64,000 nt of DNA from NCBI GenBank assembly GCA_045124035.1, contig JBGVLC010000032.1:30427-94426 (forward strand). The letters run 5' to 3'. This DNA is from Ruminococcus sp. Its GTDB lineage: Bacteria; Bacillota; Clostridia; Oscillospirales; Acutalibacteraceae. The notes beneath the pieces were generated by a model. It was not told the DNA's origin. It searched no databases and saw only the letters and a program-made list of their open reading frames with translations. Positions within the stretch are counted from its first letter, which is position 1. The number at the start of each line of letters is the position of its first letter. Below, piece by piece: positions 11,915 to 64,000 of this stretch. Position numbers and translations under genes: made by a program.

Positions 11915-12125
11915 AAAAAAAGCCTGCCCCAACAATGGGACAGGCTGTGCTGCGGTACCACCCAAATTGACAAAGTTACCTTTGCCCTCTTTGATGTCTT
12001 TAACGCAGACATACGCTGTGCTTTCACACAGAGCTCAGGGGTAGCTTGCTGAAATTTCGCCCAAAGCCTCGCACCAGACGGCTTCTCTCTGTAGAGCTTG
12101 AAGTCAGCTTGTCCCATCAACGCCA
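11915..12125 (-). promoter_or_regulatory. T-box riboswitch (Ala) upstream of alaS
   Basis: Minus strand shows AGAGA and GGTG stem I motifs, a candidate GCT (Ala) specifier, the T-box AATTTGGGTGGTACCGC, and a terminator GCCTGTCCC..GGGGCAGGC-TTTTTT. Confidence 0.9.
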
Positions 12126-12142
12126 ATTTATATATCCTCTAG

Positions 12143-41604: not shown

Positions 41605-44250
41605 TCATTCAATCAGACCGTATTTTATTTTTATTCGGTCAAGTTTTTCAAGCATCGGTTCTGATACAAGCAAAAGAAATAAAGCCGTTGAAAAACCGTG
41701 AATCAAATCCATCGGCAAACCTGTCACATAGTAAGCAAACAACATCTCAAAATTTACTGACTGCGGTGAAATCATCAAAGCCGCCGCAGGGTTCATTATA
41801 CCACCGTATATTACAACCGCACACAAAACGCCAAACACAGCAAGTGACATTCTTGTTCTTCTGAGCCATCCTTTTTTGAACAGTACACCTGCCAAAAACC
41901 CAATTATACCCATCGCAAACATCTGCCAAGGTGTCCATGGACCTTGTGAAAACAACATATTTGATGTAAGCATTGTAACAGCACCTACTAAAAATCCTGT
42001 TTCTCCACCCAAGGCTACACCTGCAATTATTGTCAAAGCCATAACTGGTTTGAACTGCGGCAGCATAAAAAACAGGCTTCGTCCTGCAACTGCTATGCCA
42101 CACAGCACAGCTATTGTAACAAGCTCTCTTGCTTTTGGTTTTCTGCCCTCAAAGACGAGCACAAATGGTAACATACACTCGAGTAGCACAAGCAGGGCAA
42201 TTATGTTGTAATAGTCATCATCAAGATAGAACACACCGCAAAAAATTGTAAGTGGTATGAAAAGTAAAATCAGAACTGAAGCAGTAATAGTTCGTCTGTT
42301 TAGTTTTCGATGTTGTTTATCAGTTTGCACCATAATCGGTGCTGGACTTCTTCGACCTATCGAGAGTATAAACACCGACAAAGCCACAAACAAGACTATA
42401 TATAATTTCAGCTGACCAAAACCTTGTTCACTTATACCTGATGAATTCACCATTGAAGATAATTCTGTTATCCCTGTTGCATATAAAAATACAGCAAAAG
42501 CAACAAGCATTGAAACACAAGCTATCAGCTTTCGCCACAATGGAAGTGGCTTTGGTTTGAAGCTTACACTTCTTTTTGAGACTTGCGGTAGTGGTGTTAT
42601 CGTTTCATCTTCTTCTGCTTCTTCTTTGATTTCTGCACCACAGCAATATGTAATATCTTCAACTGTTACAGCCTTTGGTATAAGGTGGCGAGCCATACGA
42701 TTTGCAGGAGTAGTGTAAAAGCTGTTGCCCGAGAAAAACTCTCTTGGTGTGCCTTCTGCAACAATATTGCCGTCAAAAAACATTCCGCAACGGTGAGCAT
42801 ATTCAGCACAAAAGCTTACATCGTGGCTGACCATAAGAATTGTCACACCTTGCTTTAACAGCTTTTTCAGAATATTTGCAAAGCTGACTTTAAATTCCGC
42901 ATCAAAACCTTTTGTCGGTTCATCTAAAAGCAACACATCAGGAGAAGTAAGCAACACTTTTGCAAGGGCTGTACGCTGTTGTTCACCGCCTGAGATGTCA
43001 TAAGGATGACGGTCAAGAAAAGCTGAAAGCTCACATAATTTTACTACACGGGCAACCTGCTCGTCCTTTTCTTCCTTTGTCATTTTAGCACCTTTGAACA
43101 CTTCATATAAATCTTCTCGAACAGTGCGTTTCACAAAAAGTGTCTGGGGATTCTGAGGAAGATGTGCAAGCTTTCCTTTTATTTTCACATCTCCTCTGTA
43201 TGATGGCAGTATTCCTGAAATTACTTTTAATGCAGTTGTTTTTCCTGCACCATTACCACCTAGTAATGCATAGAAATCGCTTTTTCTGAGTTCAAGTGAA
43301 AAACCTTTGACCACATCAGGTGAGTCTTTCTCGTATCGAAACCAGATGTTATCAACTCTCAAAGCTACATCTTCACTTTGAATTAAATCGTCTTTTTTAT
43401 AAAGCTCCCTGAGGGGCTTTTCTTTATTTCTGCTGTTTAAAAAATCACTGCCATCACGCACAGTAAGAGGACAACTTAAATCTGTCTCAACTCCTGCCCA
43501 TACACGCATAGCAGTTGGCATAGCAAGAAACATTGAGTTTTCTTTTTCTTTGAGAGTCAGTCCGACTTTCTGAGGAACATCATCACAGATTATTTCGCCT
43601 TTTTCCATAACAACAACCCTAGTTGCATAGACAAAAGCTTCTTCGAGGCGGTGCTCTGTGAGTATAACAGTTGTGCCGAGTTCTCGGTTGATTCTGCCGA
43701 GAAGTGCCAAAAAGTCGGTTGCCGCAATCGGGTCAAGCTGTGCTGTAGGTTCATCAAGCACCAGCACGCTTGGTTGCATAGCCATAACAGAAGCTAAACT
43801 TAACAGCTGTTTCTGTCCGCCTGACAGTTCGCTGACGTTTTTATAAAACCATTTTTCAATTCCGAAAAAAGCCGCTACTTCTGCAACTCGTCTGCGGATT
43901 GTCGGCGTATCATAGCCTAAACTTTCAAGACCGAACGCAAGCTCATGCCACACCTTATCGGTTACAACCTGATTTTCGGGTGACTGCATAACAAAGCCGA
44001 TTTTCTGAGATTGAGTGCGTGCGTCAACGTCATCAAGTTTATACCCATCAAAAAGAATGTCACCTGTTAAAGTTCCGTGTGGTTTAAGGCAGGTTTTCAA
44101 ATGCCTTAAAAGAGTTGATTTACCACAACCTGACGGACCACAAAGCACTAAAAATTCACCTTGTGTTACCTCAAAAGAAATGCTTTTGAGTGCTCTTTGC
44201 TCCTGCTCAGGATACGAAAAGCTCACATTTTTGAATATATAGTTTTCCAT
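41605..44250 (-). CDS. ECF transporter: tandem ATPase (A-A') fused to a C-terminal S component (CbrT-like, cobalamin)
   Basis: Two Walker A motifs (GPSGCGKST, GGNGAGKTT), LSGGQ and ISGGE signatures; C-terminal multi-TM region with PQFKPVMAL..GFLVGA..SNMLFSQGPWTPWQMFAMG. Confidence 0.88.
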   Translation of the reverse strand: MENYIFKNVSFSYPEQEQRALKSISFEVTQGEFLVLCGPSGCGKSTLLRHLKTCLKPHGTLTGDILFDGYKLDDVDARTQSQKIGFVMQSPENQVVTDKVWHELAFGLESLGYDTPTIRRRVAEVAAFFGIEKWFYKNVSELSGGQKQLLSLASVMAMQPSVLVLDEPTAQLDPIAATDFLALLGRINRELGTTVILTEHRLEEAFVYATRVVVMEKGEIICDDVPQKVGLTLKEKENSMFLAMPTAMRVWAGVETDLSCPLTVRDGSDFLNSRNKEKPLRELYKKDDLIQSEDVALRVDNIWFRYEKDSPDVVKGFSLELRKSDFYALLGGNGAGKTTALKVISGILPSYRGDVKIKGKLAHLPQNPQTLFVKRTVREDLYEVFKGAKMTKEEKDEQVARVVKLCELSAFLDRHPYDISGGEQQRTALAKVLLTSPDVLLLDEPTKGFDAEFKVSFANILKKLLKQGVTILMVSHDVSFCAEYAHRCGMFFDGNIVAEGTPREFFSGNSFYTTPANRMARHLIPKAVTVEDITYCCGAEIKEEAEEDETITPLPQVSKRSVSFKPKPLPLWRKLIACVSMLVAFAVFLYATGITELSSMVNSSGISEQGFGQLKLYIVLFVALSVFILSIGRRSPAPIMVQTDKQHRKLNRRTITASVLILLFIPLTIFCGVFYLDDDYYNIIALLVLLECMLPFVLVFEGRKPKARELVTIAVLCGIAVAGRSLFFMLPQFKPVMALTIIAGVALGGETGFLVGAVTMLTSNMLFSQGPWTPWQMFAMGIIGFLAGVLFKKGWLRRTRMSLAVFGVLCAVVIYGGIMNPAAALMISPQSVNFEMLFAYYVTGLPMDLIHGFSTALFLLLVSEPMLEKLDRIKIKYGLIE

Positions 44251-45113
44251 TTTCTATCCTCCACAGTGTTGAGCACAACAGGTGTTATGCATAGTCCAAA
44301 GTAAATAAAATAAAAAGGTATGGTTGTAATATTGAAAGCTGAGTATCGTATATCCGGAAAATATCTGAAACCAAAGGCAGATACTATAACTCCAGCCAGA
44401 AGATACAGAAAACAGAACACAAACCATACAAGTACGTATTTATCCCTATCCTCAAAACGATAAATAGAAAACGCTGTTCTGCCCTTTAAGCCGTAACCTC
44501 GGCTTTTCATACTGTCAGCAGTTTCGATTGCATTCTCAAGCGACCACGTTATCATAATCGACATAATTGTTATTGCAGTTTTTGTGCGACTGATAAGACT
44601 TCCGCTTGATATATCTCTGCCGATACATCTTTGTGCATCTGCTACATTTTTCATCTGAGTTTTGAATTTCGGTACAAAACGTAAGGTCATACTGAGCACT
44701 AACGATAATGCGGGTATAACCTTGCCGAAAAGATAAATAAACTTATCAGATGTCATAACGCAGTTGAAAGCCGAAAACCACAACAGCAAAGTTATAATCA
44801 TACCGCCTGACGAAAAACCATAGAGTATGCTTTCAAGTGTCAGCGGATTACCGTTTGAAAAATACAGCAAAATAGTTTTGCCCTCGTGATTAAAAGCAGG
44901 GTTAATGAACGCCGTGAGTAAGACAAGTGGTAAGCAGAATTTCAGCAAAAAGCCTACACTTTTCTTTCCCTGTGTGCTGATAACATAAACGACAGCACAC
45001 AAGAGTGAAATAAGCTGTGCAAACGGATGGTTGATTACCATTGAAAATCCGATTGTAAGCGTAAAATATATTAAATTAACAAAAGGATGATACTTAGAAA
45101 AAGAATCACGCAT
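44223..45113 (-). CDS. ECF transporter T component (CbiQ/EcfT)
   Basis: YHPFVNLIYF, MTLRFVPKF, LENAIETADSMKSRGYG. Confidence 0.9.
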   Translation of the reverse strand: MRDSFSKYHPFVNLIYFTLTIGFSMVINHPFAQLISLLCAVVYVISTQGKKSVGFLLKFCLPLVLLTAFINPAFNHEGKTILLYFSNGNPLTLESILYGFSSGGMIITLLLWFSAFNCVMTSDKFIYLFGKVIPALSLVLSMTLRFVPKFKTQMKNVADAQRCIGRDISSGSLISRTKTAITIMSIMITWSLENAIETADSMKSRGYGLKGRTAFSIYRFEDRDKYVLVWFVFCFLYLLAGVIVSAFGFRYFPDIRYSAFNITTIPFYFIYFGLCITPVVLNTVEDRKWKTIYSKM

Positions 45114-50240: not shown

Positions 50241-50269
50241 TCACCAAAGTTGTGTTTAACCTAAAAAAG

Positions 50270-50445
50270 AAACGGCAGGTCTCCTGACTTATGATACTGT
50301 GTACTACACCTAAAAGCACTCCTTCTCAGGATATCCCCAATGGCTCTTGTGCCTTTTATATCAAATACAGTAATGGCGGTTGTTCCGGATTCGAACCGGA
50401 TTCCCTTTTACATTTACTCAGCTTACAACTTTTCAAACCGTATCT
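50270..50445 (-). promoter_or_regulatory. Cobalamin riboswitch
   Basis: AAAAGGGAATCCGGTTCGAATCCGGAACAACCGCCATTACTGTA...GCCATTGGG...GAAGG...AAGTCAGGAGACCTGCC, matching the B12-element consensus. Confidence 0.92.
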
Positions 50446-50471
50446 TCTTATATCGATATTTAATTTTAGTT

Positions 50472-55146: not shown

Positions 55147-55770
55147 TTATACGCGATCCTTTATAAGAAGCGCTTTTCCGTTTTGTACAAATACCTCTGC
55201 AATTTTTCCGCTAATAACTTCGTTGCTTACAGCATACTGATATTCGCAGGTGATTTCTGCGTTATCAAGTGGATACTTAGCATTTCTGATAGTTACGCCT
55301 TTGGCTGTGCCTGTGATATTAAGAAGTGAGAAGAAAGCATACGAATCATCAATGAAAGCAGGCTCCTTTGATACTATTTCCATTTCTGAATAATCATCAA
55401 TGATTTTGCCTTTCTTGCCGAGCGACTCAAGGTGAAGAAGTATAGACACATTTCCTAGTGTGTGGTCAAGCCTTCCTCCAATTACACCAATCAAAAGAAA
55501 TTCATCAAAACCTCTTTTGATAGCTTCTTTAACGGCATAGACTGTGTCAGTATCATCTTTTTCACATGGAAGCACTATCGTTTCAACATCAAGATTAGGG
55601 TTCTCATGTGAATCGAAATCACCGACAATCAAGTTCGGAGAAACACCTAACCCTTTCAAGTGCTTTAGCCCGCTGTCGCAGAACACAACAAAATCATCGT
55701 TGTGCAAACAGTTTTTGATATATTCATAATTGTTTATGTCAGCACCGCCGACAATTACACATCGTTTCAT
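55147..55770 (-). CDS. thiN: Thiamine pyrophosphokinase
   Basis: CDSG, VGDFDS, EKDDTDT, GGRLDHTLGN, VSNE. Confidence 0.92.
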   Translation of the reverse strand: MKRCVIVGGADINNYEYIKNCLHNDDFVVFCDSGLKHLKGLGVSPNLIVGDFDSHENPNLDVETIVLPCEKDDTDTVYAVKEAIKRGFDEFLLIGVIGGRLDHTLGNVSILLHLESLGKKGKIIDDYSEMEIVSKEPAFIDDSYAFFSLLNITGTAKGVTIRNAKYPLDNAEITCEYQYAVSNEVISGKIAEVFVQNGKALLIKDRV

Positions 55771-56579
55771 CTTGCCACCTCTGAATATTTACCTGATAAA
55801 TCAAAATTGTGCATCATAGGCCCGGAACCTTGTCCTAAATCAAGCTGAGCTGAAAGTGCATCGGAAATATAGTCCTTGGCTCTCTTTACGGACATAGCAA
55901 GGTCAAAGCCCTTTGCAAGGTTGGAGGCAATGGCACTCGACAGCGTACAGCCTGTGCCGTGGGTGTTGGGATTGTTGATACGCTTGCCTTCAAACCATAC
56001 CATTTCACCGTTTGCATACAAAAGGTCGTTAGCATCGTTGATACTGTGACCGCCTTTGAGCAGGACGGCACAGCCGTATGTATCACCGATTAATTTTGCC
56101 GCAGAAAGCATATCTTCTTTGCTTTCAATAGCCTTTCCCGAAAGCACCTGTGCTTCGGGGATATTCGGCGTAACGAGGGTTGCAATGGGCAGAAGTTTCT
56201 CTACTAAGGTTTGTACCGCATCGGTCTTCATCAAAGAAGAGCCGCTGGTTGCTACCATAACAGGGTCTACGACTATGTTTTTTGCTTTATAATATCTTAT
56301 TCTGTCTGCAATTATCGATATCAACTCGCAGGAGGATACCATACCGATTTTTACGGCATCGGGATAAATATCCTCGAATACCGCATTTAATTGTTTGCTC
56401 AGGAAGTCGGGTGTTGACTCCTGAATCGCTCTTACGCCGATTGTGTTCTGTGCCGTTAGTGCCGTAATCGCACTCATAGCATAAATACCATTCATCGTCA
56501 TTGTTTTCAAATCCGCCTCTATACCGGCGCCTCCACTGCAGTCTGAGCCTGCAATGGTCAATGCTGTTTTCATTTTCAT
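55767..56579 (-). CDS. thiD: HMP/HMP-P kinase
   Basis: LTIAGSDCSGGAGIEADLKT, VDPVMVATSG, LKGGH, HGTGCTLSSA. Confidence 0.95.
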   Translation of the reverse strand: MKMKTALTIAGSDCSGGAGIEADLKTMTMNGIYAMSAITALTAQNTIGVRAIQESTPDFLSKQLNAVFEDIYPDAVKIGMVSSCELISIIADRIRYYKAKNIVVDPVMVATSGSSLMKTDAVQTLVEKLLPIATLVTPNIPEAQVLSGKAIESKEDMLSAAKLIGDTYGCAVLLKGGHSINDANDLLYANGEMVWFEGKRINNPNTHGTGCTLSSAIASNLAKGFDLAMSVKRAKDYISDALSAQLDLGQGSGPMMHNFDLSGKYSEVAR

Positions 56580-56660: not shown

Positions 56661-57320
56661 TTATAAACCGTAAGCAAACTTCCAAAAATGTTCTGTCTGT
56701 GTAAAGTTCTCAATAAAGCAATCCGAAATGGAGAGTAGTTCCGCTTGCTTCGTCTCGTGAGAATCAAATACCGCAACGGTTATAAACCCATCAGCTTTTG
56801 CTGTTTTGGCTGCGTAATAAGCATCCTCAAAGACAACCGTATCTGCCTTTGTTGTTCCAAGATACTCCATCGCCTTTTGGAAAATTATAGGCTCATCTTT
56901 TCCAAACCCTACTTCAGTACAAGTAAAGATTTCTGAAAAATACTTATCCATATCACAACGCTTTAGAGCTGCCTCAACCTGATAGCGGTCAGTAGCAGTA
57001 GCAATGCACATTTTCACGTTCATACTTTTCAAAAGCTCAAGAAACTCAATTACACCTTCCTTTGGCTGTACCGTATGAAAATAAAAATTTTCTACTGTCT
57101 TATTGATACCGTCCATAATTTCCTGAGTATCAAGTTTCAAGTTGTACTTTTCAGCGATGTAAATGGCTGATTGTGTTAAACTCATTGACTTTAGTGAGTT
57201 TTGCAAGTTTTCTTTTGGTTGTATTCCTAAAGAAGAAAGATAGGCTTCTCCCGCTGTTTCCCAAACAAACATAGAATCAAAAAGAGTTCCGTCAAAGTCA
57301 AATATTGCACCTTTTAACAT
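56661..57320 (-). CDS. HAD family phosphatase within the thi operon
   Basis: IFDFDGTL, IATAT, KDEP, VFEDA. Confidence 0.85.
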   Translation of the reverse strand: MLKGAIFDFDGTLFDSMFVWETAGEAYLSSLGIQPKENLQNSLKSMSLTQSAIYIAEKYNLKLDTQEIMDGINKTVENFYFHTVQPKEGVIEFLELLKSMNVKMCIATATDRYQVEAALKRCDMDKYFSEIFTCTEVGFGKDEPIIFQKAMEYLGTTKADTVVFEDAYYAAKTAKADGFITVAVFDSHETKQAELLSISDCFIENFTQTEHFWKFAYGL

Positions 57321-57949
57321 AAATTCAGTTCCTTTACTCTCGCTTTGAGTTCTTCTGTTGCCTTTTTCGGGTCATCGGCTTTCATTATCGCTGAAACAAC
57401 ACAGATTCCTGAAATAGAGATCCCGTCAAGAACATCAATGTTATCTTTATTTAGTCCACCGATTGCATTGACGGAAATCGGTACAGCGTTACAAATATCA
57501 TTTAAAGTATCGGTAGACGTAAGCACGGTTTTCACCTTTGTTGTAGTTGGATAAATCGCACCAACACCGAGATAGTCAGCACCCTGTTCAAATGCTTCCT
57601 TTGCCTGTTCAACTGTTTTGGTTGTTGCGCCTACGATTTTGTTTTCTCCCATCAGTTTGCTTGCTATGGCAACGGGCATATCACTTTGTCCAACGTGAAC
57701 ACCCTCAGCATCTATAGCAAGTGCTACATCAACTCTGTCGTCAATAATTAGAGGAACATTGTACTTCTGCGTGATATTATGTACTTTCTGAGCAAGCTCA
57801 ATGTATTCGCGGGTTGTTTTATCTTTTTCACGAAGTTGCATAAGTGTAACACCACCCTGCAATGCCTTTTCAACACGACTAAGAAATTCCTGCTCAGTAT
57901 AGTTAGAACTGTCGGTTATAAAATATAAACTTGTATCAAACTTTTTCAT
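57314..57949 (-). CDS. thiE: Thiamine-phosphate synthase
   Basis: LYFITD, QLREK, IIDDRVD, GVHVGQSD, YPTTTK, AIGG; start moved to ATG at 57949. Confidence 0.95.
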   Translation of the reverse strand: MKKFDTSLYFITDSSNYTEQEFLSRVEKALQGGVTLMQLREKDKTTREYIELAQKVHNITQKYNVPLIIDDRVDVALAIDAEGVHVGQSDMPVAIASKLMGENKIVGATTKTVEQAKEAFEQGADYLGVGAIYPTTTKVKTVLTSTDTLNDICNAVPISVNAIGGLNKDNIDVLDGISISGICVVSAIMKADDPKKATEELKARVKELNLC

Positions 57950-57959
57950 TTTCTTTACC

Positions 57960-59213
57960 TCACACATACAGATAATCATTCAGGACAGGCTGTAAACCTT
58001 CATCCGCCATATCTTCGTACATCTTATTTAGGCTACGATTATCGTCAATCTCAAACTGTTCATCGCCCTGTACTTCATCAGTTTCAGCTCCGTTATATTT
58101 AGAATCGTGGTCGCCTATTCCTGTGGAAACTCCGGCAGAAACTTTTGTTGCGGCGATTTTCACAATGCCGTTTCTAAATTTTGCACTTTCCCTTGATGAC
58201 ACTGTAATTCCAACATAAGGCAGGAAAATACGGTAGGCACAAATCACCTGACAAAGCTCACTTTCACCTACATCTAACGGGTTGATTTTATCGTTATTGA
58301 TAATGGGTCTGAGTCTTGGGCAAGACAGCGACATCTCTGCGTGAGGATATTTTCTTTGTAAAAAATATACATGTAAAGCACTTGCAAGTGCATCTTTTCT
58401 AAAATCAGATAAACCTAAAAGAGCCGAAAAAGCAACTCCACGCATACCGCCTTTGAGTGCACGCTCTTGTGCATCAAAGCGATATGGCCACACACGTTTA
58501 TGTCCGAAAAGATGAAGAGTTTCGTATTTATCGGAATCATAGGTTTCTTGAAACACAGTGATGTAATCAGCTCCGCATTCGTGCAAGTATTTATATTCAT
58601 CAGTATTAACAGGGTAAATCTCAAGACCGACCATACGGAAATATTTGCGTGCTAATTTACAAGCCTCGCCGATATATTCCACATTACTCTGACCTCTGCT
58701 CTCACCTGTCAGAATAAGAATTTCTTCCATACCACTATCAGCAATAACTTTCATCTCTTTTTCAATCTGCTCCATACTAAGCTTCATTCTCTTTATATGG
58801 TTATAGCAGTTAAATCCACAATATACACAATAATTCTCACAGTAGTTTGCTATGTAAAGAGGAGTAAAAAGATACACAGTATTACCGAAATGTTTACTTG
58901 TTTCAAGTCTTGCACGTTGTGCCATTTGCTCCAGAAACGGCTTAGCCGCCGGAGATAAAAGTGCCTTAAAATCTTCGATAGTACACACATCGTGCTGGAG
59001 TGCCGCCTTTACATCAGTAGCAGTATATTTGCTGTAATCGTAAGACTTCATCTGCTCTACAACCTTTGAACAAACATCGGATTCAATAATCTCCATACCA
59101 TCCATATACTCCATATGATTAGTACGAAAAGAGGGCTCATTTTCAAGTCTGTGTTTTTTCAAGAGAGCCTTAGAAGATAAATGCTTAGAATCTACAAAAA
59201 ATTGGTTCTCCAT
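57960..59213 (-). CDS. thiH: 2-iminoacetate synthase (radical SAM)
   Basis: LFTPLYIANYCENYCVYCGF, FQETY, SLSCPRLRP, SAGVSTGIG..QFEIDDNRS. Confidence 0.95.
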   Translation of the reverse strand: MENQFFVDSKHLSSKALLKKHRLENEPSFRTNHMEYMDGMEIIESDVCSKVVEQMKSYDYSKYTATDVKAALQHDVCTIEDFKALLSPAAKPFLEQMAQRARLETSKHFGNTVYLFTPLYIANYCENYCVYCGFNCYNHIKRMKLSMEQIEKEMKVIADSGMEEILILTGESRGQSNVEYIGEACKLARKYFRMVGLEIYPVNTDEYKYLHECGADYITVFQETYDSDKYETLHLFGHKRVWPYRFDAQERALKGGMRGVAFSALLGLSDFRKDALASALHVYFLQRKYPHAEMSLSCPRLRPIINNDKINPLDVGESELCQVICAYRIFLPYVGITVSSRESAKFRNGIVKIAATKVSAGVSTGIGDHDSKYNGAETDEVQGDEQFEIDDNRSLNKMYEDMADEGLQPVLNDYLYV

Positions 59214-59222
59214 ATTTTCACC

Positions 59223-59993
59223 TTAATTTCTCAAAAATCCTGTTAATGGGTCTGAAGCAGATGCACCACGAGTAAGCACTCTGCCAAGACCGGAAAGATA
59301 TGCTTTTCGTCCTGCTTCAATAGCATTCTTGAAAGCAGAAGCCATCATCGGAAGATCTCCTGCTGTTGCAAGAGCTGTATTAGCCATAATAGCAGAAGCA
59401 CCCATCTCCATAGCTTCACAAGCCTGTGAAGGTCTGCCGATACCCGCATCTACAATAATTGGCACATCAATTTCATCAATAAGAATCTGAATGAACTCTT
59501 TTGTCGCAAGACCCTTGTTAGAACCGATAGGCGAAGCCAAAGGCATCACAGAAGCTGCACCTGCATTCACTAAATCTCTTGCGACGTTCAAATCGGGATA
59601 CATATACGGCATAACCACAAAGCCCTCTTTAGCAAGGATTTCGGTTGCTTTTATAGTTTCCTGATTATCAGGCAAAAGATATTTTGAATCACGCATGATC
59701 TCAATTTTTACAAAATCACCACAGCCAAGCTCACGTGCTAAACGAGCAATTCGCACAGCTTCTTCCGCATTTCTTGCGCCCGATGTATTAGGAAGCAAAG
59801 TAATTCCCTGTGGAATATAATCGAGTATATTTTCCTGTTCTTTTGTGTTAGCTCTGCGAACTGCAAGAGTGATTATCTCGGCACCTGCATCCTTTACTGC
59901 CGCTTCAATCAGCTTCATAGAATACTTACCGGAACCGAGAATAAAACGGGAATTAAACTCGTGTCCGCCAATAATCAATTTGTCATTATTCAT
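59223..59993 (-). CDS. thiG: Thiazole synthase
   Basis: [43 protein letters not shown]. Confidence 0.97.
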
Positions 59994-60011: not shown

Positions 60012-60647
60012 TTAAGTTTCAAATTCACCTACTAAAATACGCAGGACAGTATGTGCCTGATGTGCGGCACAAAGCATAACTCGGGATGAAACAAGACTGC
60101 CTTCTGATTGCACGTCACTTTCTTCATCTCCGCACAGATAAAACCTGCTCATAACCTTTCGCGTCTTAATGGTGTTTGCACTGCCCATTCCTGCCATACC
60201 TGATGCCGCTACAAGAAACTTGTCCGACATTTTTTCAAGAACAAGATTTGTAAGCATAGCCTTGCATTCTGCATCATCAAAGGCTTCGCAGATAATATCT
60301 GCATTTCCAAGAAGCTGTTCTGCGTTATTTTCAGTAATACGAACACAATGGGTTTCAACTGTAGTGAATGGAGCAATTTCACGCAGATTGTGAGCTAAAG
60401 CATCTGTTTTATTCATTCCTATTTGATTAGCTTTATATTGCTGTCGGTGAAGATTCGTGATATCTACTTTGTCAAAGTCAATCAGAATCAGCTTACCAAC
60501 ACCTGCACGAGCAAGAGCAACAGCTATATTTGAACCAAGTCCTCCAAGACCGCAAATCGCAACTGTTGCAGATGTAAATTTTCTTTGTATATCTTCACTG
60601 TGCCTTTCGCACAAAGCCTTGTACCATTCTTCTTTTGTAGGAATCAG
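60012..60647 (-). CDS. thiF: Sulfur-carrier protein ThiS adenylyltransferase
   Basis: CGLGGLGSN, DFDKVDITNLHRQ, ICEAFD; probable CTG start 7 nt after a GGAGGT SD. Confidence 0.9.
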   Translation of the reverse strand: MIPTKEEWYKALCERHSEDIQRKFTSATVAICGLGGLGSNIAVALARAGVGKLILIDFDKVDITNLHRQQYKANQIGMNKTDALAHNLREIAPFTTVETHCVRITENNAEQLLGNADIICEAFDDAECKAMLTNLVLEKMSDKFLVAASGMAGMGSANTIKTRKVMSRFYLCGDEESDVQSEGSLVSSRVMLCAAHQAHTVLRILVGEFET

Positions 60648-60648
60648 C

Positions 60649-60843
60649 TTAACCACCTCCCACAAAGCTGACAACCTCAACATTGTCACCATCACACAGC
60701 AGAGTATCTGCGTACTGTGATTTTGGAACTATATCGCCATTGCGTTCAACTGCGATCCTTTTTGGGTCGTAATTTGTGGTTGCAAGGTATTCTGCTACTG
60801 TCTTACCTGCAATATCCAGTTCCACGCCGTTGATTTTAACCAT
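60649..60843 (-). CDS. thiS: Sulfur carrier protein
   Basis: 64 aa ending VVSFVGGG. Confidence 0.95.
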   Translation of the reverse strand: MVKINGVELDIAGKTVAEYLATTNYDPKRIAVERNGDIVPKSQYADTLLCDGDNVEVVSFVGGG

Positions 60844-60862: not shown

Positions 60863-61015
60863 CAAAAAAGGAAGCTACCGATTTGGTAACTTCCTTAATA
60901 TACTTCGTTATTCCTAATATCCTTGTATCAGGCATCCCTACGTTGGCATTATCCAAATCAGGTTCTCGGTCGAAGGTCACACCTTCCTCTCAGCCTGTAA
61001 CACAAGCTCCCGTTT
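60863..61015 (-). promoter_or_regulatory. TPP riboswitch with terminator (upstream of thiS)
   Basis: CGGGAGC..GGCTGAGAGG..GACC..AACCTGATTTGGATAATGCCAACGTAGGG; terminator AGGAAGTTACC/GGTAGCTTCCT-T6. Confidence 0.95.
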
Positions 61016-61046
61016 ATTTAATTGTCAAAAAAACTATACTCTAATA

Positions 61047-61649
61047 TCAATTATAAGGACGAACTCTAAATATAGCTCCCACTGATTCGCAGATTTCTCG
61101 ACACTTTTCCTGTTCTTCCTTAGTTGTTACAACGTCCACAACTGTCATCATAACAGAGGGAACATATTCAGTACAATCCTTTGTAAACTGAAGCATAGCA
61201 TCAAAGGACTCTATTCCAAATTTAGGGCGAACCACCTCAAGGTAATCTTCCTTATTGGTAGCATTGAGACTTATAGAAACTGCGTCAATAAGTCCCTTGA
61301 GTTTAGGTGCTGTAGATTTCTCCCATATCAAATCAGCAAGACCATTTGTATTGATTCGGATTCTAATATCACTTTTTGATTTGATATATTTTGCTACTTC
61401 AAGCAAATCATAAAGACGCTCTGTAGGTTCACCAAAACCGCAGAATACAACCTCTTCATAATTTGCTAAATCCCACGTATCTAAGCTATCACAAATTTCT
61501 TGTACAGTTGGTTCTCTTTCAAGCCACAGCGAATCCGACTCAAAAACGTGGTCTTTTTTATTGCGTACGCAGAATGTACATGCACAGGGACAACGATTGG
61601 TTATATTAACGTATAGTCCCGTTGTGACAGGGTATGTAATTGTCATCAT
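61047..61649 (-). CDS. Radical SAM protein (TIGR04100-like, partner of a small membrane protein)
   Basis: LYVNITNRCPCACTFCVR (CxxxCxxC), VVFCGFGEPT, RINTNGL, ISLN. Confidence 0.85.
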   Translation of the reverse strand: MMTITYPVTTGLYVNITNRCPCACTFCVRNKKDHVFESDSLWLEREPTVQEICDSLDTWDLANYEEVVFCGFGEPTERLYDLLEVAKYIKSKSDIRIRINTNGLADLIWEKSTAPKLKGLIDAVSISLNATNKEDYLEVVRPKFGIESFDAMLQFTKDCTEYVPSVMMTVVDVVTTKEEQEKCREICESVGAIFRVRPYN

Positions 61650-62158
61650 CGCAGATTCCCTCCATATATTTTTGATTTAAGTTTCATTTTATCGGCGGTA
61701 AGTCCAAAAGCAATAAAAACAATAGCACTTGCTACCGACTGTGTAACAGATGCAGGAATTCCAGCCAGTGGAGAAACAAAATTGCCATATATCAAGGACT
61801 CATATAAATAGTATCCGCCTGCACACACCATCGTAGCCGGCAAAACAGCCAATGAATTTCTCAAGTTTATAACCTTGTCTTTCTTGCTTGAAAAGAGCAA
61901 AACAGTAAGTGCTTTGATTATAACAGAACCCGGTGCCCAAACAGCAAATCCGGTAAGACAGTCTGCAAGAAACGCTCCACCTGCACCTACCACCATAGCA
62001 TAGTGCCAAGGCAATAAGCAAGCAGCAAGATATATTAAACCGTCACCTACGTGGATATATCCATTATTTGTTGGAATATGCAGATATGCGGTGACAACGA
62101 AAACCAAGGCAGTAAAAAAGCCGGTTATACACATAAGTTGTACTTTTTTATTTTTCAT
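61646..62158 (-). CDS. ECF-type S component (TIGR04002-like)
   Basis: 170 aa, hydrophobic; GYIHVGDGLIYLAACLLP, GAFLAD, WAPGSVIIK. Confidence 0.8.
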   Translation of the reverse strand: MKNKKVQLMCITGFFTALVFVVTAYLHIPTNNGYIHVGDGLIYLAACLLPWHYAMVVGAGGAFLADCLTGFAVWAPGSVIIKALTVLLFSSKKDKVINLRNSLAVLPATMVCAGGYYLYESLIYGNFVSPLAGIPASVTQSVASAIVFIAFGLTADKMKLKSKIYGGNLR

Positions 62159-62243
62159 AATATATTTTTCACCTCAAACTTTTCTAAGGTTCGTTATAAC
62201 TAACAATCTATAGATGTGAAGCAGTTGGTTTGATTTGCGTAAA

Positions 62244-62392
62244 ATAAAAAGGAAACTACCTATTTGGTAATTTCCTTAAAAATCAGTTTCCATGATACGT
62301 TGTATCATGCATCCCTACGTTGGCATTATCCAAATCAGGTCCTAGGTCGAAGGTCACACCTTCCTCTCAGCCTGTAACACAAGCTCCCGTTT
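62244..62392 (-). promoter_or_regulatory. TPP riboswitch with terminator (upstream of the S component)
   Basis: Aptamer nearly identical to the 60933-61015 copy; terminator AGGAAATTACC/GGTAGTTTCCT-T5; promoter TTGAAA-N17-TATAAT at 62409-62437. Confidence 0.95.
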
Positions 62393-62608
62393 CTTAAATT
62401 TTGGTTACATTATACACCGCAAAACTGCATATTTCAAGAGGTTTTTAAAGTTATAGAGTTACTTTATCAAAGTACTCACTTGTATGTGTCTGTTTAGGCG
62501 CACCATCGTCGTCACGGACTCAAAAGATCGTACAACTATTTTTATGATGAAATGGTCGCATAACCTTAATATAACTCCTCTGACCTTTGTTACATTTTTT
62601 ACTAGCTA

Positions 62609-63190
62609 TTATATTTCTGTGCATCTTACTACAATTCTTGTTCTCCCACTATATGTGCAGGTATATAAGATAAGATCATCACCCGTATCTTTCACAAGCT
62701 CAGTATCAGTAGGATGTAGGATTTCAACAGACGTTACGGTATACATGTTTTTTGTTCCTTCCATATCAGTAAACATCACCATTGAATCCAAACTAAGTTC
62801 TCCAATATAACCAAAGTGGCTTTTATAATTATGTGCACATATTACAAGGTTATCTGTTTTAATCGAACCATAATAACGGCAAGGAGCAACTCTGAGTCTA
62901 GAATAATCACATTCTGACATAACAGGAAGTGTTACATTCAACTCAGGGATATCAAGATATCCGATATAATCATTGCCCTCTATATCTACAACTTTCATTT
63001 CTGTGTCAAATGGGTCAATCTCGTCATTAGTCTGATTATTGTCCACTGTATCAATAATAGCATCCATCACTCGATTTGACTGTTCTTGTGCTTTTTTATT
63101 TTCGAAATTGTTGTACAAAAAGAGAGCTACTGCGAAAAGAATCAGTATTAATCCCAACGTTACAAGAGTTATTCCGATTTTTCTTTTCAA
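62609..63190 (-). CDS. Sortase (class D-like)
   Basis: N-terminal TM helix; catalytic His (CAHN), LILYTC, RIVVRC. Confidence 0.88.
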   Translation of the reverse strand: MKRKIGITLVTLGLILILFAVALFLYNNFENKKAQEQSNRVMDAIIDTVDNNQTNDEIDPFDTEMKVVDIEGNDYIGYLDIPELNVTLPVMSECDYSRLRVAPCRYYGSIKTDNLVICAHNYKSHFGYIGELSLDSMVMFTDMEGTKNMYTVTSVEILHPTDTELVKDTGDDLILYTCTYSGRTRIVVRCTEI

Positions 63191-63213
63191 GAATTTATCC
63201 CCTATCTTCTAGC

Positions 63214-64000
63214 CTATTCATTTTCTTTTTTACCGAAGTTCAGCATAGCCCAACCGATGCTGAAAAAGATAAGACCTAAAATGACACAAACCGGTACAGG
63301 CCAATTAAGTTGTCCTGTCTGAACAAGTTTATCGTTACTGTCTTCAGGTTGGGTCGGTATAGTTTCTTCGGTTTCATCCGACTTGTTTGTAATGTTAACT
63401 GTGTTTGATGATGTTTCATAATACACAGTATAATCTTCAGGGACTTCTGTTTCGACTACGCTCCAAATATATTTTTTCGGTAGATTATCCCATCTGTAAT
63501 ACCAATTATTAGCTGAGTTTAACTCTATTTTTTCATACTCCTGATAATCACGCAGTAAGACAACTGTAATGCTTTGTGGAATAGTTTTATCAGTATTCCA
63601 TTTTTTCATAACACTTATATAAGTGTTATCGCCATCTGTCAATCTAGCTCGAATTTTAGGTGATGCCTCAACGTTGTTTTCATATGTTTCATTATGAATA
63701 TCATATGTAGGGACGCTGATAAGAAAAGGTGTTGTAACATAATCAGACAATTCGCTTTGTACAGGAACGATAAGATATAGTCCGTGTTCAAGGTTATCAA
63801 AAACCAGTGTACCATTTTCGTTTGTGCTTTTCTCTGTGTAAGGTTGAGAACAGGAATATGAAAAATATGCAAGGTGTATAGGATTATAAGAATCCTGTAA
63901 ATCTGACAAGTCAACTCCTGCCTTATCGTAAGGTGAAATCATATCATATCTTATACCCTTTGAGTCTTTGCGTGCTTTTGCAACATGATATAATTTAAAA
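63214..64000 (-). CDS. Cna-B domain sortase substrate (partial; the frame is open to the window end)
   Basis: ISVMKKWN..PQSITVVL..LNSANNWYYRWDNL..WSVVE..VPEDY; sorting signal LVQTG + QLNWPVPV + TM helix + basic tail. Confidence 0.82.
   Translation of the reverse strand, partial: FKLYHVAKARKDSKGIRYDMISPYDKAGVDLSDLQDSYNPIHLAYFSYSCSQPYTEKSTNENGTLVFDNLEHGLYLIVPVQSELSDYVTTPFLISVPTYDIHNETYENNVEASPKIRARLTDGDNTYISVMKKWNTDKTIPQSITVVLLRDYQEYEKIELNSANNWYYRWDNLPKKYIWSVVETEVPEDYTVYYETSSNTVNITNKSDETEETIPTQPEDSNDKLVQTGQLNWPVPVCVILGLIFFSIGWAMLNFGKKENE

Follow-up and report, generated by a model that had tools for sequence, protein, structure and literature searches.

Salvage of vitamin B6 in Streptococcus and other Firmicutes follows a published layout of regulator, kinase and permease, PdxR-PdxK-PdxU (PMC5320631, PMC11619246), and the PdxR regulons in the literature often contain a putative pyridoxine 5'-phosphate (PNP) oxidase (PMC5320631). 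In thiamine metabolism, importers such as CytX, ThiXYZ, YkoEDC and ThiT are encoded directly behind riboswitches for thiamine pyrophosphate (TPP) (PMC6593275). An ambiguity between the two vitamins is known from the energy-coupling factor (ECF) S-component of L. brevis (4HZU, chain S), which was at first called HmpT, for predicted transport of hydroxymethylpyrimidine (HMP), and later PdxU2, for pyridoxamine (PMC4860826, PMC9997740). Here we describe a gene pair found in 64,000 nucleotides of DNA from Ruminococcus sp. (assembly GCA_045124035.1, contig JBGVLC010000032.1, positions 30,427 to 94,426); this whole stretch is called the window in the following. The pair consists of an ECF S-component, in short S, and a radical S-adenosylmethionine enzyme, in short rSAM, and it stands behind a TPP riboswitch at the head of a thi operon.

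A preliminary description of the window, made from the sequence alone, had proposed that S imports a pyrimidine or a thiamine degradation product and that rSAM converts it to HMP, thus as an alternative to ThiC. Our analysis led to a different explanation, which we consider moderately probable: duplication of the thi leader brought a B6-type salvage pair into the TPP regulon, S may also import HMP, and rSAM is not an HMP synthase. The ancestral S and kinase would have taken up B6 vitamers and phosphorylated them at the 5' position, as in the PdxR-PdxK-PdxU loci, and the substrate of rSAM would be this same small vitamer, free or phosphorylated, and not aminoimidazole ribotide or an HMP precursor. 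A copy of the thi promoter and riboswitch would then have been placed before S, the kinase and the MocR-type regulator being gone from the locus, and after this capture the pair would be expressed only at low TPP. The likeliest benefit would be that a PdxU/HmpT-like S also takes up HMP, a close structural analogue of the B6 vitamers, for use by ThiD and ThiE. S would in this way be the HMP importer of the now thiC-less genome, with rSAM possibly carried along by translational coupling. If S also carries HMP, this would explain why TPP control was kept across species.

The pair and its usual genomic context

Two samples of genomes were used for the comparison. Firstly, a class sample of 399 Clostridia genomes, each at least 90% complete, was searched for the rSAM family and for ThiC. 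Strong rSAM homologues (above 200 bits) were present in 93 of these genomes, the remaining matches being noise below 46 bits. Neighbouring genes were classified at every rSAM locus and a pair was defined by S directly before rSAM. The cut-off of the NCBIfam model TIGR04100 was dropped as a definition of the pair, as it fails to separate S-linked from TatD-linked proteins and TatD-linked homologues pass it too (271 bits in L021 and L022). Secondly, to reach closer relatives, 13 S-components were aligned and one genome per prokaryotic species was scanned, which gave 575 relatives of S; for the 80 top loci (58-98% identity), gene content was determined by jackhmmer, with the window's own proteins as seeds. 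The association statistics for thiC and PdxS given below treat genomes as independent and are not corrected for phylogeny. The 48 metagenome-assembled genomes (MAGs) that hold close S relatives may be incomplete, and absences of ThiE or thiC there may reflect gaps.

S stood directly before rSAM in 14 of the 399 class-sample genomes, the window's included. In 11 of these 14 pairs a kinase gene of 274-300 codons lies just upstream of S, and its product belongs to the PdxK family (NF005491 'pyridoxamine kinase', 280 bits, cut-off 231); kinase and rSAM occur without S in three further genomes. The 80 closest S loci showed the same pattern, with a kinase at 59, a divergent MocR gene at 54 and rSAM at about 72. 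Thus the canonical layout is a MocR regulator, made of a GntR helix-turn-helix and an aminotransferase-like domain, transcribed divergently from kinase-S-rSAM, and this locus is common in Oscillospirales and other Clostridia. Stop and start codons of rSAM and the preceding S or kinase gene usually overlap or abut at the roughly 72 loci. In the case of the window, the S and rSAM genes share a 4-nt ATGA overlap, by which rSAM is translationally coupled to S. The window pair is orthologous to the S-rSAM tail of the MocR-kinase-S-rSAM loci. The curated pair of many gut Clostridia thereby gains a testable home, namely the tail of a MocR-pdxK-S operon in B6 salvagers.

The likeness to PdxR-PdxK-PdxU is apparent: orthologues of the pair lie beside a divergent MocR gene and a PdxK-family kinase, the S-component is of family PF07155, and the carriers lack de novo synthesis of pyridoxal 5'-phosphate (PLP). 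The difference is that rSAM is appended as third gene of the operon. In the window, furthermore, the locus has lost kinase and regulator, and a TPP riboswitch stands in for MocR control: neither a MocR nor a PdxK-family kinase gene was found next to S, and homologues of the two lie on other contigs of the genome, at G000:C10 and G000:C9, respectively (G000 being the window's genome).

The vitamin status of the carriers points in the same direction. PdxS was found in none of the 14 pair carriers, compared to 103 of the remaining 385 (p 0.025, without correction for phylogeny), and PdxJ in none of 16 genomes tested, the window's and 13 other carriers among them. All carriers tested are without either de novo PLP route, which fits a dependence on B6 salvage. 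In the 99%-complete genome of the window none of pdxS, pdxJ and pdxH was found; for PdxH, a search seed validated against Pfam was used in phmmer and tblastn searches, without a match in this genome.

ThiE, in turn, was absent from 5 of the 14 pair genomes. All five are 96-100% complete, and three of them have an rSAM that is 75-78% and an S that is 66% identical to those of the window. Among the MAGs with close S relatives, ThiE was absent from 27 of 48, and from 23 of the 29 whose pair is not beside a thi operon. Because HMP is useless without ThiE and many carriers have no ThiE, the function of the pair at the level of the family cannot be HMP supply.

In the case of S, the best solved match by sequence was 4HZU_S (E 2.3e-5, 24% identity). 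This was also the best Foldseek match (template modelling score, TM, 0.74-0.76) of an AlphaFold2 (AF2) model with a predicted local distance difference test (pLDDT) value of 90.5, and the top 24 matches were all ECF S-components. S and HmpT/PdxU2 are thus members of the same Pfam family, PF07155, and present the same ambiguity between HMP and B6 as substrate. They differ in that their identity is just 24% and that the window S falls into a separate subfamily, TIGR04002, with a GYxHxGD motif of its own, which was invariant in the alignment of the 13 S-components. With CytX, ThiXYZ, YkoEDC and ThiT, S has in common that its gene lies directly behind a TPP riboswitch; it differs by its protein family, its rSAM partner and by orthologues that are mostly not TPP-regulated. 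A genome-wide riboswitch search left S as the sole TPP-regulated candidate importer besides ThiT, and it is possible that S brings in a pyrimidine. Weakly in favour of HMP import by S is that thiC is absent from 7 of the 15 ThiE-positive genomes with the pair beside a thi operon (MAGs maybe incomplete, phylogeny uncorrected), for comparison with about 16% in published gut genomes (PMC6593275). Whether S-components of PF07155 transport HMP in addition to B6 vitamers, the question posed by HmpT/PdxU, is thus raised anew, and it bears on models of vitamin cross-feeding in gut communities.

An ECF energising module is encoded elsewhere in the genome (G000:C33 12494-15023), in the order ecfA-ecfA'-ecfT, then truA. 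Its ATPases match the ECF ATPase domains of L109 (E 1e-47 and 6e-37), and the putative EcfT, a 270-aa membrane protein with an Ala-Arg-Gly motif, was assigned by motif and synteny only. Within the window, another PF07155 domain is found at the C-terminus of an 881-aa protein (41605-44250, minus strand), fused to two ABC ATPase domains. An EcfT/CbiQ-like gene lies just upstream (about 44223-45113, minus strand), and together the two look like a dedicated fused ECF transporter. The orthologue of the fusion in L109 is 1.6 kb from the MocR-S-rSAM locus; in the window the distance is 17 kb.

Thiamine control of the locus and the place of thiC

Control by TPP is the exception among relatives of the pair. 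None of the 13 other pair loci of the class sample had a TPP riboswitch (Rfam scans, flanks up to 5 kb), and in 17 genomes with S- or kinase-linked rSAM that were searched throughout with RF00059, only the window had a riboswitch at the pair locus. For the 80 close loci, a TPP riboswitch model was built from 25 Rfam-confirmed aptamers. Its RNAalifold structure was poor (6 base pairs), which makes it essentially a sequence profile, and its complete true matches reached 83-101 bits, with the best noise at 14 bits. A riboswitch before S was detected at only 6 of the 80 loci (L115-118, L120 and L130), plus L112 and the window. In these relatives it scored 83-100 bits down to an S identity of 76%, with promoter and terminator kept. 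The preliminary description had named thiC elsewhere in the genome together with a general lack of TPP riboswitches at homologous pairs as an argument against its proposal; of the two, the lack of riboswitches was found.

Intermediate arrangements are visible among the relatives. At 20 of the 80 loci, a TPP riboswitch with thiSFGHE-HAD starts directly after rSAM, in most cases with MocR and the kinase still upstream; in several genera, salvage locus and thi operon have thus long been adjacent. In L121 and L122 the kinase is lost and the order is MocR, S-rSAM, then riboswitch and thi genes. In L115-118, L120, L130, L112 and the window MocR is lost too, and a second riboswitch stands before S. 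In the alignment, the promoter of this upstream copy corresponds to the one before the thiS riboswitch of L109 and L130. The locus thus offers a case of regulatory rewiring, with a duplicated riboswitch and promoter taking the place of a protein regulator.

The age of the duplication could be bounded by comparison with G403, a sister species (88.6% DNA identity over 6.7 kb of the locus, S 98% identical), which also has an orthologue of the upstream riboswitch. The two aptamers of the window are 94.8% identical to each other, and 93.8% and 99% identical to their respective G403 orthologues, the 99% being that of the thiS copy. With each aptamer as close or closer to its G403 orthologue, and the expression platforms of window and G403 likewise grouping by position, the duplication is older than the split of the two species.

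Two further relatives depart from this arrangement. L112 (4249-6253) consists of a TPP riboswitch, S, rSAM and then a gene for thiamine diphosphokinase (TPK), which looks like the window operon minus the part from the second riboswitch through thiD. In L113 (3892-4492; rSAM 83% identical), a promoter and a hairpin, the latter homologous to that of the riboswitch terminator, precede S and the TPP aptamer is missing, which looks like a secondary loss of the sensor.

With regard to thiC, the preliminary description had noted that thiC and tenA are absent from the window, and had advised a search of the whole genome. This search extended both absences: PF01964 gave no candidate in the whole assembly (draft, 38 contigs, 99.2% complete), and TenA was likewise not found in the genome. 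With thiazole synthesis, ThiD and ThiE present and ThiC missing, the genome is of the 'Ah' type of published gut genomes (PMC6593275). In G403 the order is riboswitch-S-rSAM-riboswitch-thiSFGHE-HAD-thiD and then directly thiC, a 440-aa open reading frame (ORF) whose start overlaps the end of thiD; the window has TPK in that place. Seven of the genomes that have a riboswitch before S could be searched: thiC was found in G402, G403 and G404 and partially in G405, and not in G000, G401 and G411. It follows that thiC was present in the organisms where TPP control of the pair arose. In the simplest scenario, the window lineage lost thiC after the capture, the alternative being a gain of thiC in the G403 lineage. 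The organism of the window is best interpreted as auxotrophic for HMP or thiamine, and as having lost thiC from the distal end of the thi operon.

These results bear directly on the proposal that S imports a pyrimidine or thiamine breakdown product and rSAM turns it into HMP, with the pair as a substitute for ThiC. The proposal draws on a genome that has thiD and thiE without thiC and tenA, on the TPP riboswitch that precedes the pair at the start of the thi operon, and on the absence of thiC from about half of the ThiE-positive genomes with the pair beside a thi operon. However, ThiC and rSAM are not alternatives, because they co-occur in one operon of G403. The anticorrelation with thiC that was expected did not appear either: thiC is present in 5 of 14 pair carriers and in 136 of 385 others (odds ratio 1.02, p = 1). 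In addition, the pair is frequent in genomes without ThiE, most pairs have a pdxK-like kinase and MocR in place of a TPP riboswitch, and the TPP-controlled versions show no sequence change at invariant sites. ThiC and rSAM would have radical chemistry and membership in a thiamine operon in common, but there is no sequence relation between them: ThiC has about 430-600 aa and a C-terminal cluster motif, whereas rSAM has 200 aa and an N-terminal CX3CX2C, and a profile scan of rSAM gave no match to the ThiC family. Altogether the distribution of the pair largely refutes this model, and we rate it as very improbable. Of the idea of an HMP supply route there remains that thiD and thiE occur without thiC and that a real TPP control is kept in a small clade; the pair as replacement of ThiC does not stand, and with it falls a tempting annotation as a ThiC bypass.

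What became of the regulator and the kinase could be followed in part. A MocR orthologue, 76% identical to the MocR beside S-rSAM in L121 and L122, survives elsewhere in the genomes of the window and of G403. At G000:C10 42177-43853 it faces another PF07155 S-component, of 167 aa and 35% identical to S, which scores 80 bits with TIGR04002, below the cut-off; G403 is arranged alike. This second S-component is likely a B6 importer that took over the MocR control. In the case of the kinase, a PRK07105 match (269 bits) stands alone on G000:C9; being 35-39% identical to the kinases of the loci, it is a paralogue and not the locus kinase.

The surviving MocR gives some room to a second explanation, in which the pair is purely a B6 salvage unit, the riboswitch came to lie before S as a side effect of thi leader duplication and neither thiamine nor HMP is involved, while B6 uptake under MocR is secured by the S-component beside that regulator in the window's genome and in G403. 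The canonical MocR-kinase-S-rSAM context and the predicted B6 auxotrophy of all carriers tested agree with this, as does L112, which keeps riboswitch-S-rSAM-TPK with the de novo genes absent from the 8 kb covered. The TPP-controlled proteins themselves are also unchanged at invariant sites: S has only 3 group-specific substitutions and rSAM 6, none of them at invariant columns, and a shift in specificity was rejected on these grounds. On the other hand, riboswitch (83-100 bits), promoter and terminator are intact and look like maintained regulation, and TPP-only control of a B6 importer would be costly for a B6 auxotroph. A genome without thiC also needs a source of HMP for its thiD and thiE, and ThiT is the only other TPP-regulated importer. 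We consider a pure B6 unit possible but unlikely, and prefer a captured pair whose S may carry HMP as well.

What the radical SAM enzyme may do

Both window proteins score above the curated cut-offs of the adjacent NCBIfam pair TIGR04002/TIGR04100, and rSAM scores 215 bits with TIGR04038 (TatD-associated radical SAM) as well. All three models are 'hypothetical equivalogs' with no assigned function. A literature search found no mention of TIGR04100, TIGR04002 or TIGR04038, and no link of a radical SAM enzyme to pdxK or pdxU. The cluster motif of rSAM is C20-x3-C24-x2-C27; its cysteines and the GGE-like SAM-binding stretch F69-C-G-x-G-E-P75 are conserved to at least 94% across the 93 homologues. 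Other conserved residues are R98, N100, N102, D122, S125, S127, N129, Y136, D172, R195 and R197. The AF2 model (pLDDT 88.8) consists of a bare partial TIM-barrel core with no substrate-binding extension. Foldseek returned generic cores only (SkfB, NifB, viperin, TYW1, BlsE, MoaA and DesII; TM 0.6-0.69), and a sequence search of the PDB gave no match at E 0.01.

The family has a second large group. TatD adjoins rSAM in 41 of the 93 family members of the class sample, in L021, L022 and L027 as metG-tatD-rSAM. In a maximum likelihood tree, the S-/kinase-linked rSAMs fall into one subtree with modest support (SH-aLRT 92, below the tool's threshold of 95), and most TatD-linked ones into the other. 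The clade of the window rSAM itself is well supported (SH-aLRT 99), its other five members being all kinase-linked. Cys22 is specific to the S-/kinase-linked clade; the conserved residues given above are nearly all common to the TatD-linked clade. In L086 (G041:C9, 4025-5416), matches to TatD and to the rSAM family fall within one ORF of 463 aa. This fusion argues that the TatD-linked sister clade works together with a TatD-type hydrolase.

It could be derived from the TatD linkage that rSAM is a housekeeping enzyme acting on a macromolecule (protein, RNA or DNA), its place in salvage loci being mere synteny, or that it modifies S or the kinase. Minimal radical SAM enzymes of about 200 aa include activases, and the bare core of the model, the residues common to both clades, the metG-tatD neighbourhoods and the fusion in G041 would be in line with such a role. 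Against it speak the separate subtree of the S-/kinase-linked rSAMs, modestly supported as it is, and the clade-specific Cys22. Moreover, rSAM follows S or the kinase at about 72 of the 80 loci and kinase-rSAM persists without S, which suggests a function shared with the salvage genes. A macromolecular substrate is in our view improbable.

A more specific idea for the chemistry can be formulated, which we regard as speculative and doubtful. The TIGR04100 rSAM would be an O2-independent counterpart of PdxH that converts PNP and/or pyridoxamine 5'-phosphate (PMP) to PLP in strict anaerobes without de novo PLP synthesis and PdxH, in a module that was rewired to thiamine control in the window lineage. 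The adjacent PdxK-like kinase would supply PNP and PMP by phosphorylating vitamers that S imports. HemN replaces HemF in a comparable manner. Replacement of a flavin oxidase by a radical SAM enzyme under anaerobic conditions has been described for YhcC/MnmL in place of MnmC (PMC13228596). Both precedents are analogies only, with no homology to the window rSAM. About 93% of salvage-only genomes lack PdxH (PMC9997740), and the radical SAM enzyme of a B6 salvage operon suggests itself as a candidate to fill this gap.

Among the 93 homologues there is no conserved set of cysteines beyond CX3CX2C, thus no sign of an auxiliary Fe-S cluster, and a cluster as in the BtrN/anSME-type dehydrogenases was rejected for this reason. 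If rSAM is an oxidase, it would need to act like DesII, without auxiliary cluster. The TatD-linked sister clade argues for caution with the idea of a PdxH substitute. Two loci of the S/kinase clade have neither S nor kinase, each a single case: in L018 (2159-3142) rSAM is followed by an aldo-keto reductase gene, in L017 (2094-2597) by a gene for an HD-domain protein. The aldo-keto reductase family includes the pyridoxal reductase PdxI.

Several points weigh against the capture of a B6 salvage pair with HMP import as we propose it. The B6 assignment is based on genome context and on a distant relative, 4HZU_S, at 24% identity. The S of the TPP-controlled group, with no substitution that would change specificity, fits a dual specificity, but equally the lack of any thiamine role, and if the genome of L112 is without thiD and thiE, uptake of HMP fails to explain why the unit was retained there. 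The absence of thiC from the window's genome rests on one draft assembly and is not provable. Finally, the TatD-linked rSAMs of the sister clade, with nearly the whole set of conserved residues in common, are often found in PdxS-positive genomes, and the chemistry of the rSAM family may be unconnected with vitamins.

Features of the window locus and its surroundings

The elements of the locus are collected in Table 1. They are all on the minus strand, and the whole region of the thi operon lies on one uninterrupted contig of 102 kb. The promoter, riboswitch, S-component gene and overlapping rSAM gene with its CxxxCxxC motif, as well as the order thiS-F-G-H-E-HAD-D-N downstream, had been recognised in the preliminary description and were confirmed here, its 'N' being TPK; it had also described the pair family as one without assigned function. 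The second TPP riboswitch was not mentioned in it.

Table 1. Pair, riboswitches and thi operon in the window, with positions counted from its first letter.
Feature	Position	Strand	Evidence
Sigma-70-type promoter TTGAAA-17-TATAAT	62409..62437	-	11/12 matches
TPP riboswitch aptamer copy 1, before S	62295..62400	-	RF00059 63.4 bits (gathering 54.3), E 4.2e-10, full model
Intrinsic terminator hairpin and T-run, expression platform of riboswitch 1	62249..62277	-	12-pair stem then TTTTATTTT
ECF S-component, 170 aa, TIGR04002/PF07155	61646..62158	-	TIGR04002 160.8 bits (cut-off 120); PF07155 E 7.5e-21
Radical SAM gene, 200 aa, TIGR04100	61047..61649	-	TIGR04100 297.3 bits (cut-off 262); PF04055 E 4e-16
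TPP riboswitch aptamer copy 2, before thiS	60918..61023	-	RF00059 61.2 bits, E 1.5e-9
Terminator hairpin of riboswitch 2	60868..60896	-	12-pair stem then TTTTGTTGTT
thiS	60649..60843	-	TIGR01683 79 bits
thiF	60012..60695	-	NF006395 274 bits; TIGR02354 273 bits; start uncertain, longest ORF overlaps thiS
thiG	59223..59993	-	PF05690 E 5e-101
thiH (2-iminoacetate synthase)	57960..59213	-	TIGR02351 509 bits
thiE	57314..57979	-	TIGR00693 227 bits
HAD-family hydrolase	56661..57320	-	PF13419 E 1e-25
thiD (HMP/HMP-P kinase)	55767..56579	-	TIGR00097 343 bits
Thiamine diphosphokinase (TPK)	55147..55770	-	TIGR01378 145 bits

The promoter is the only strong one for the pair, and it is homologous to that before the thiS riboswitch of relatives without the upstream copy. 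No good promoter of its own was found for the thiS-proximal riboswitch in the window or in G403, and the upstream promoter probably drives the whole thi operon. Downstream of both aptamers, a terminator hairpin with a T-run begins after 18-22 nt. In the whole genome only three TPP riboswitches were found, before the pair, before thiS and before a ThiT homologue.

The HAD hydrolase keeps its position between thiE and thiD in relatives and is fused to thiD in L110, which suggests that it performs the thiamine-phosphate phosphatase step feeding TPK. Together with the TPK gene at the end of the operon, a route from ThiE via a thiamine monophosphate phosphatase and TPK to TPP is suggested.

Just upstream of the promoter (62609-63999, minus strand), the window contains two genes, one sortase-like (193 aa, TLxTC-type motif), the other for a surface protein that ends in an LVQTG sorting signal and a membrane anchor, thus a pilus or adhesin locus with no relation to the pair. 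Elsewhere in the window, a cobalamin riboswitch (50257-50457, minus strand, 86.7 bits) and a T-box leader (11933-12129, minus strand, 98.9 bits) were detected.

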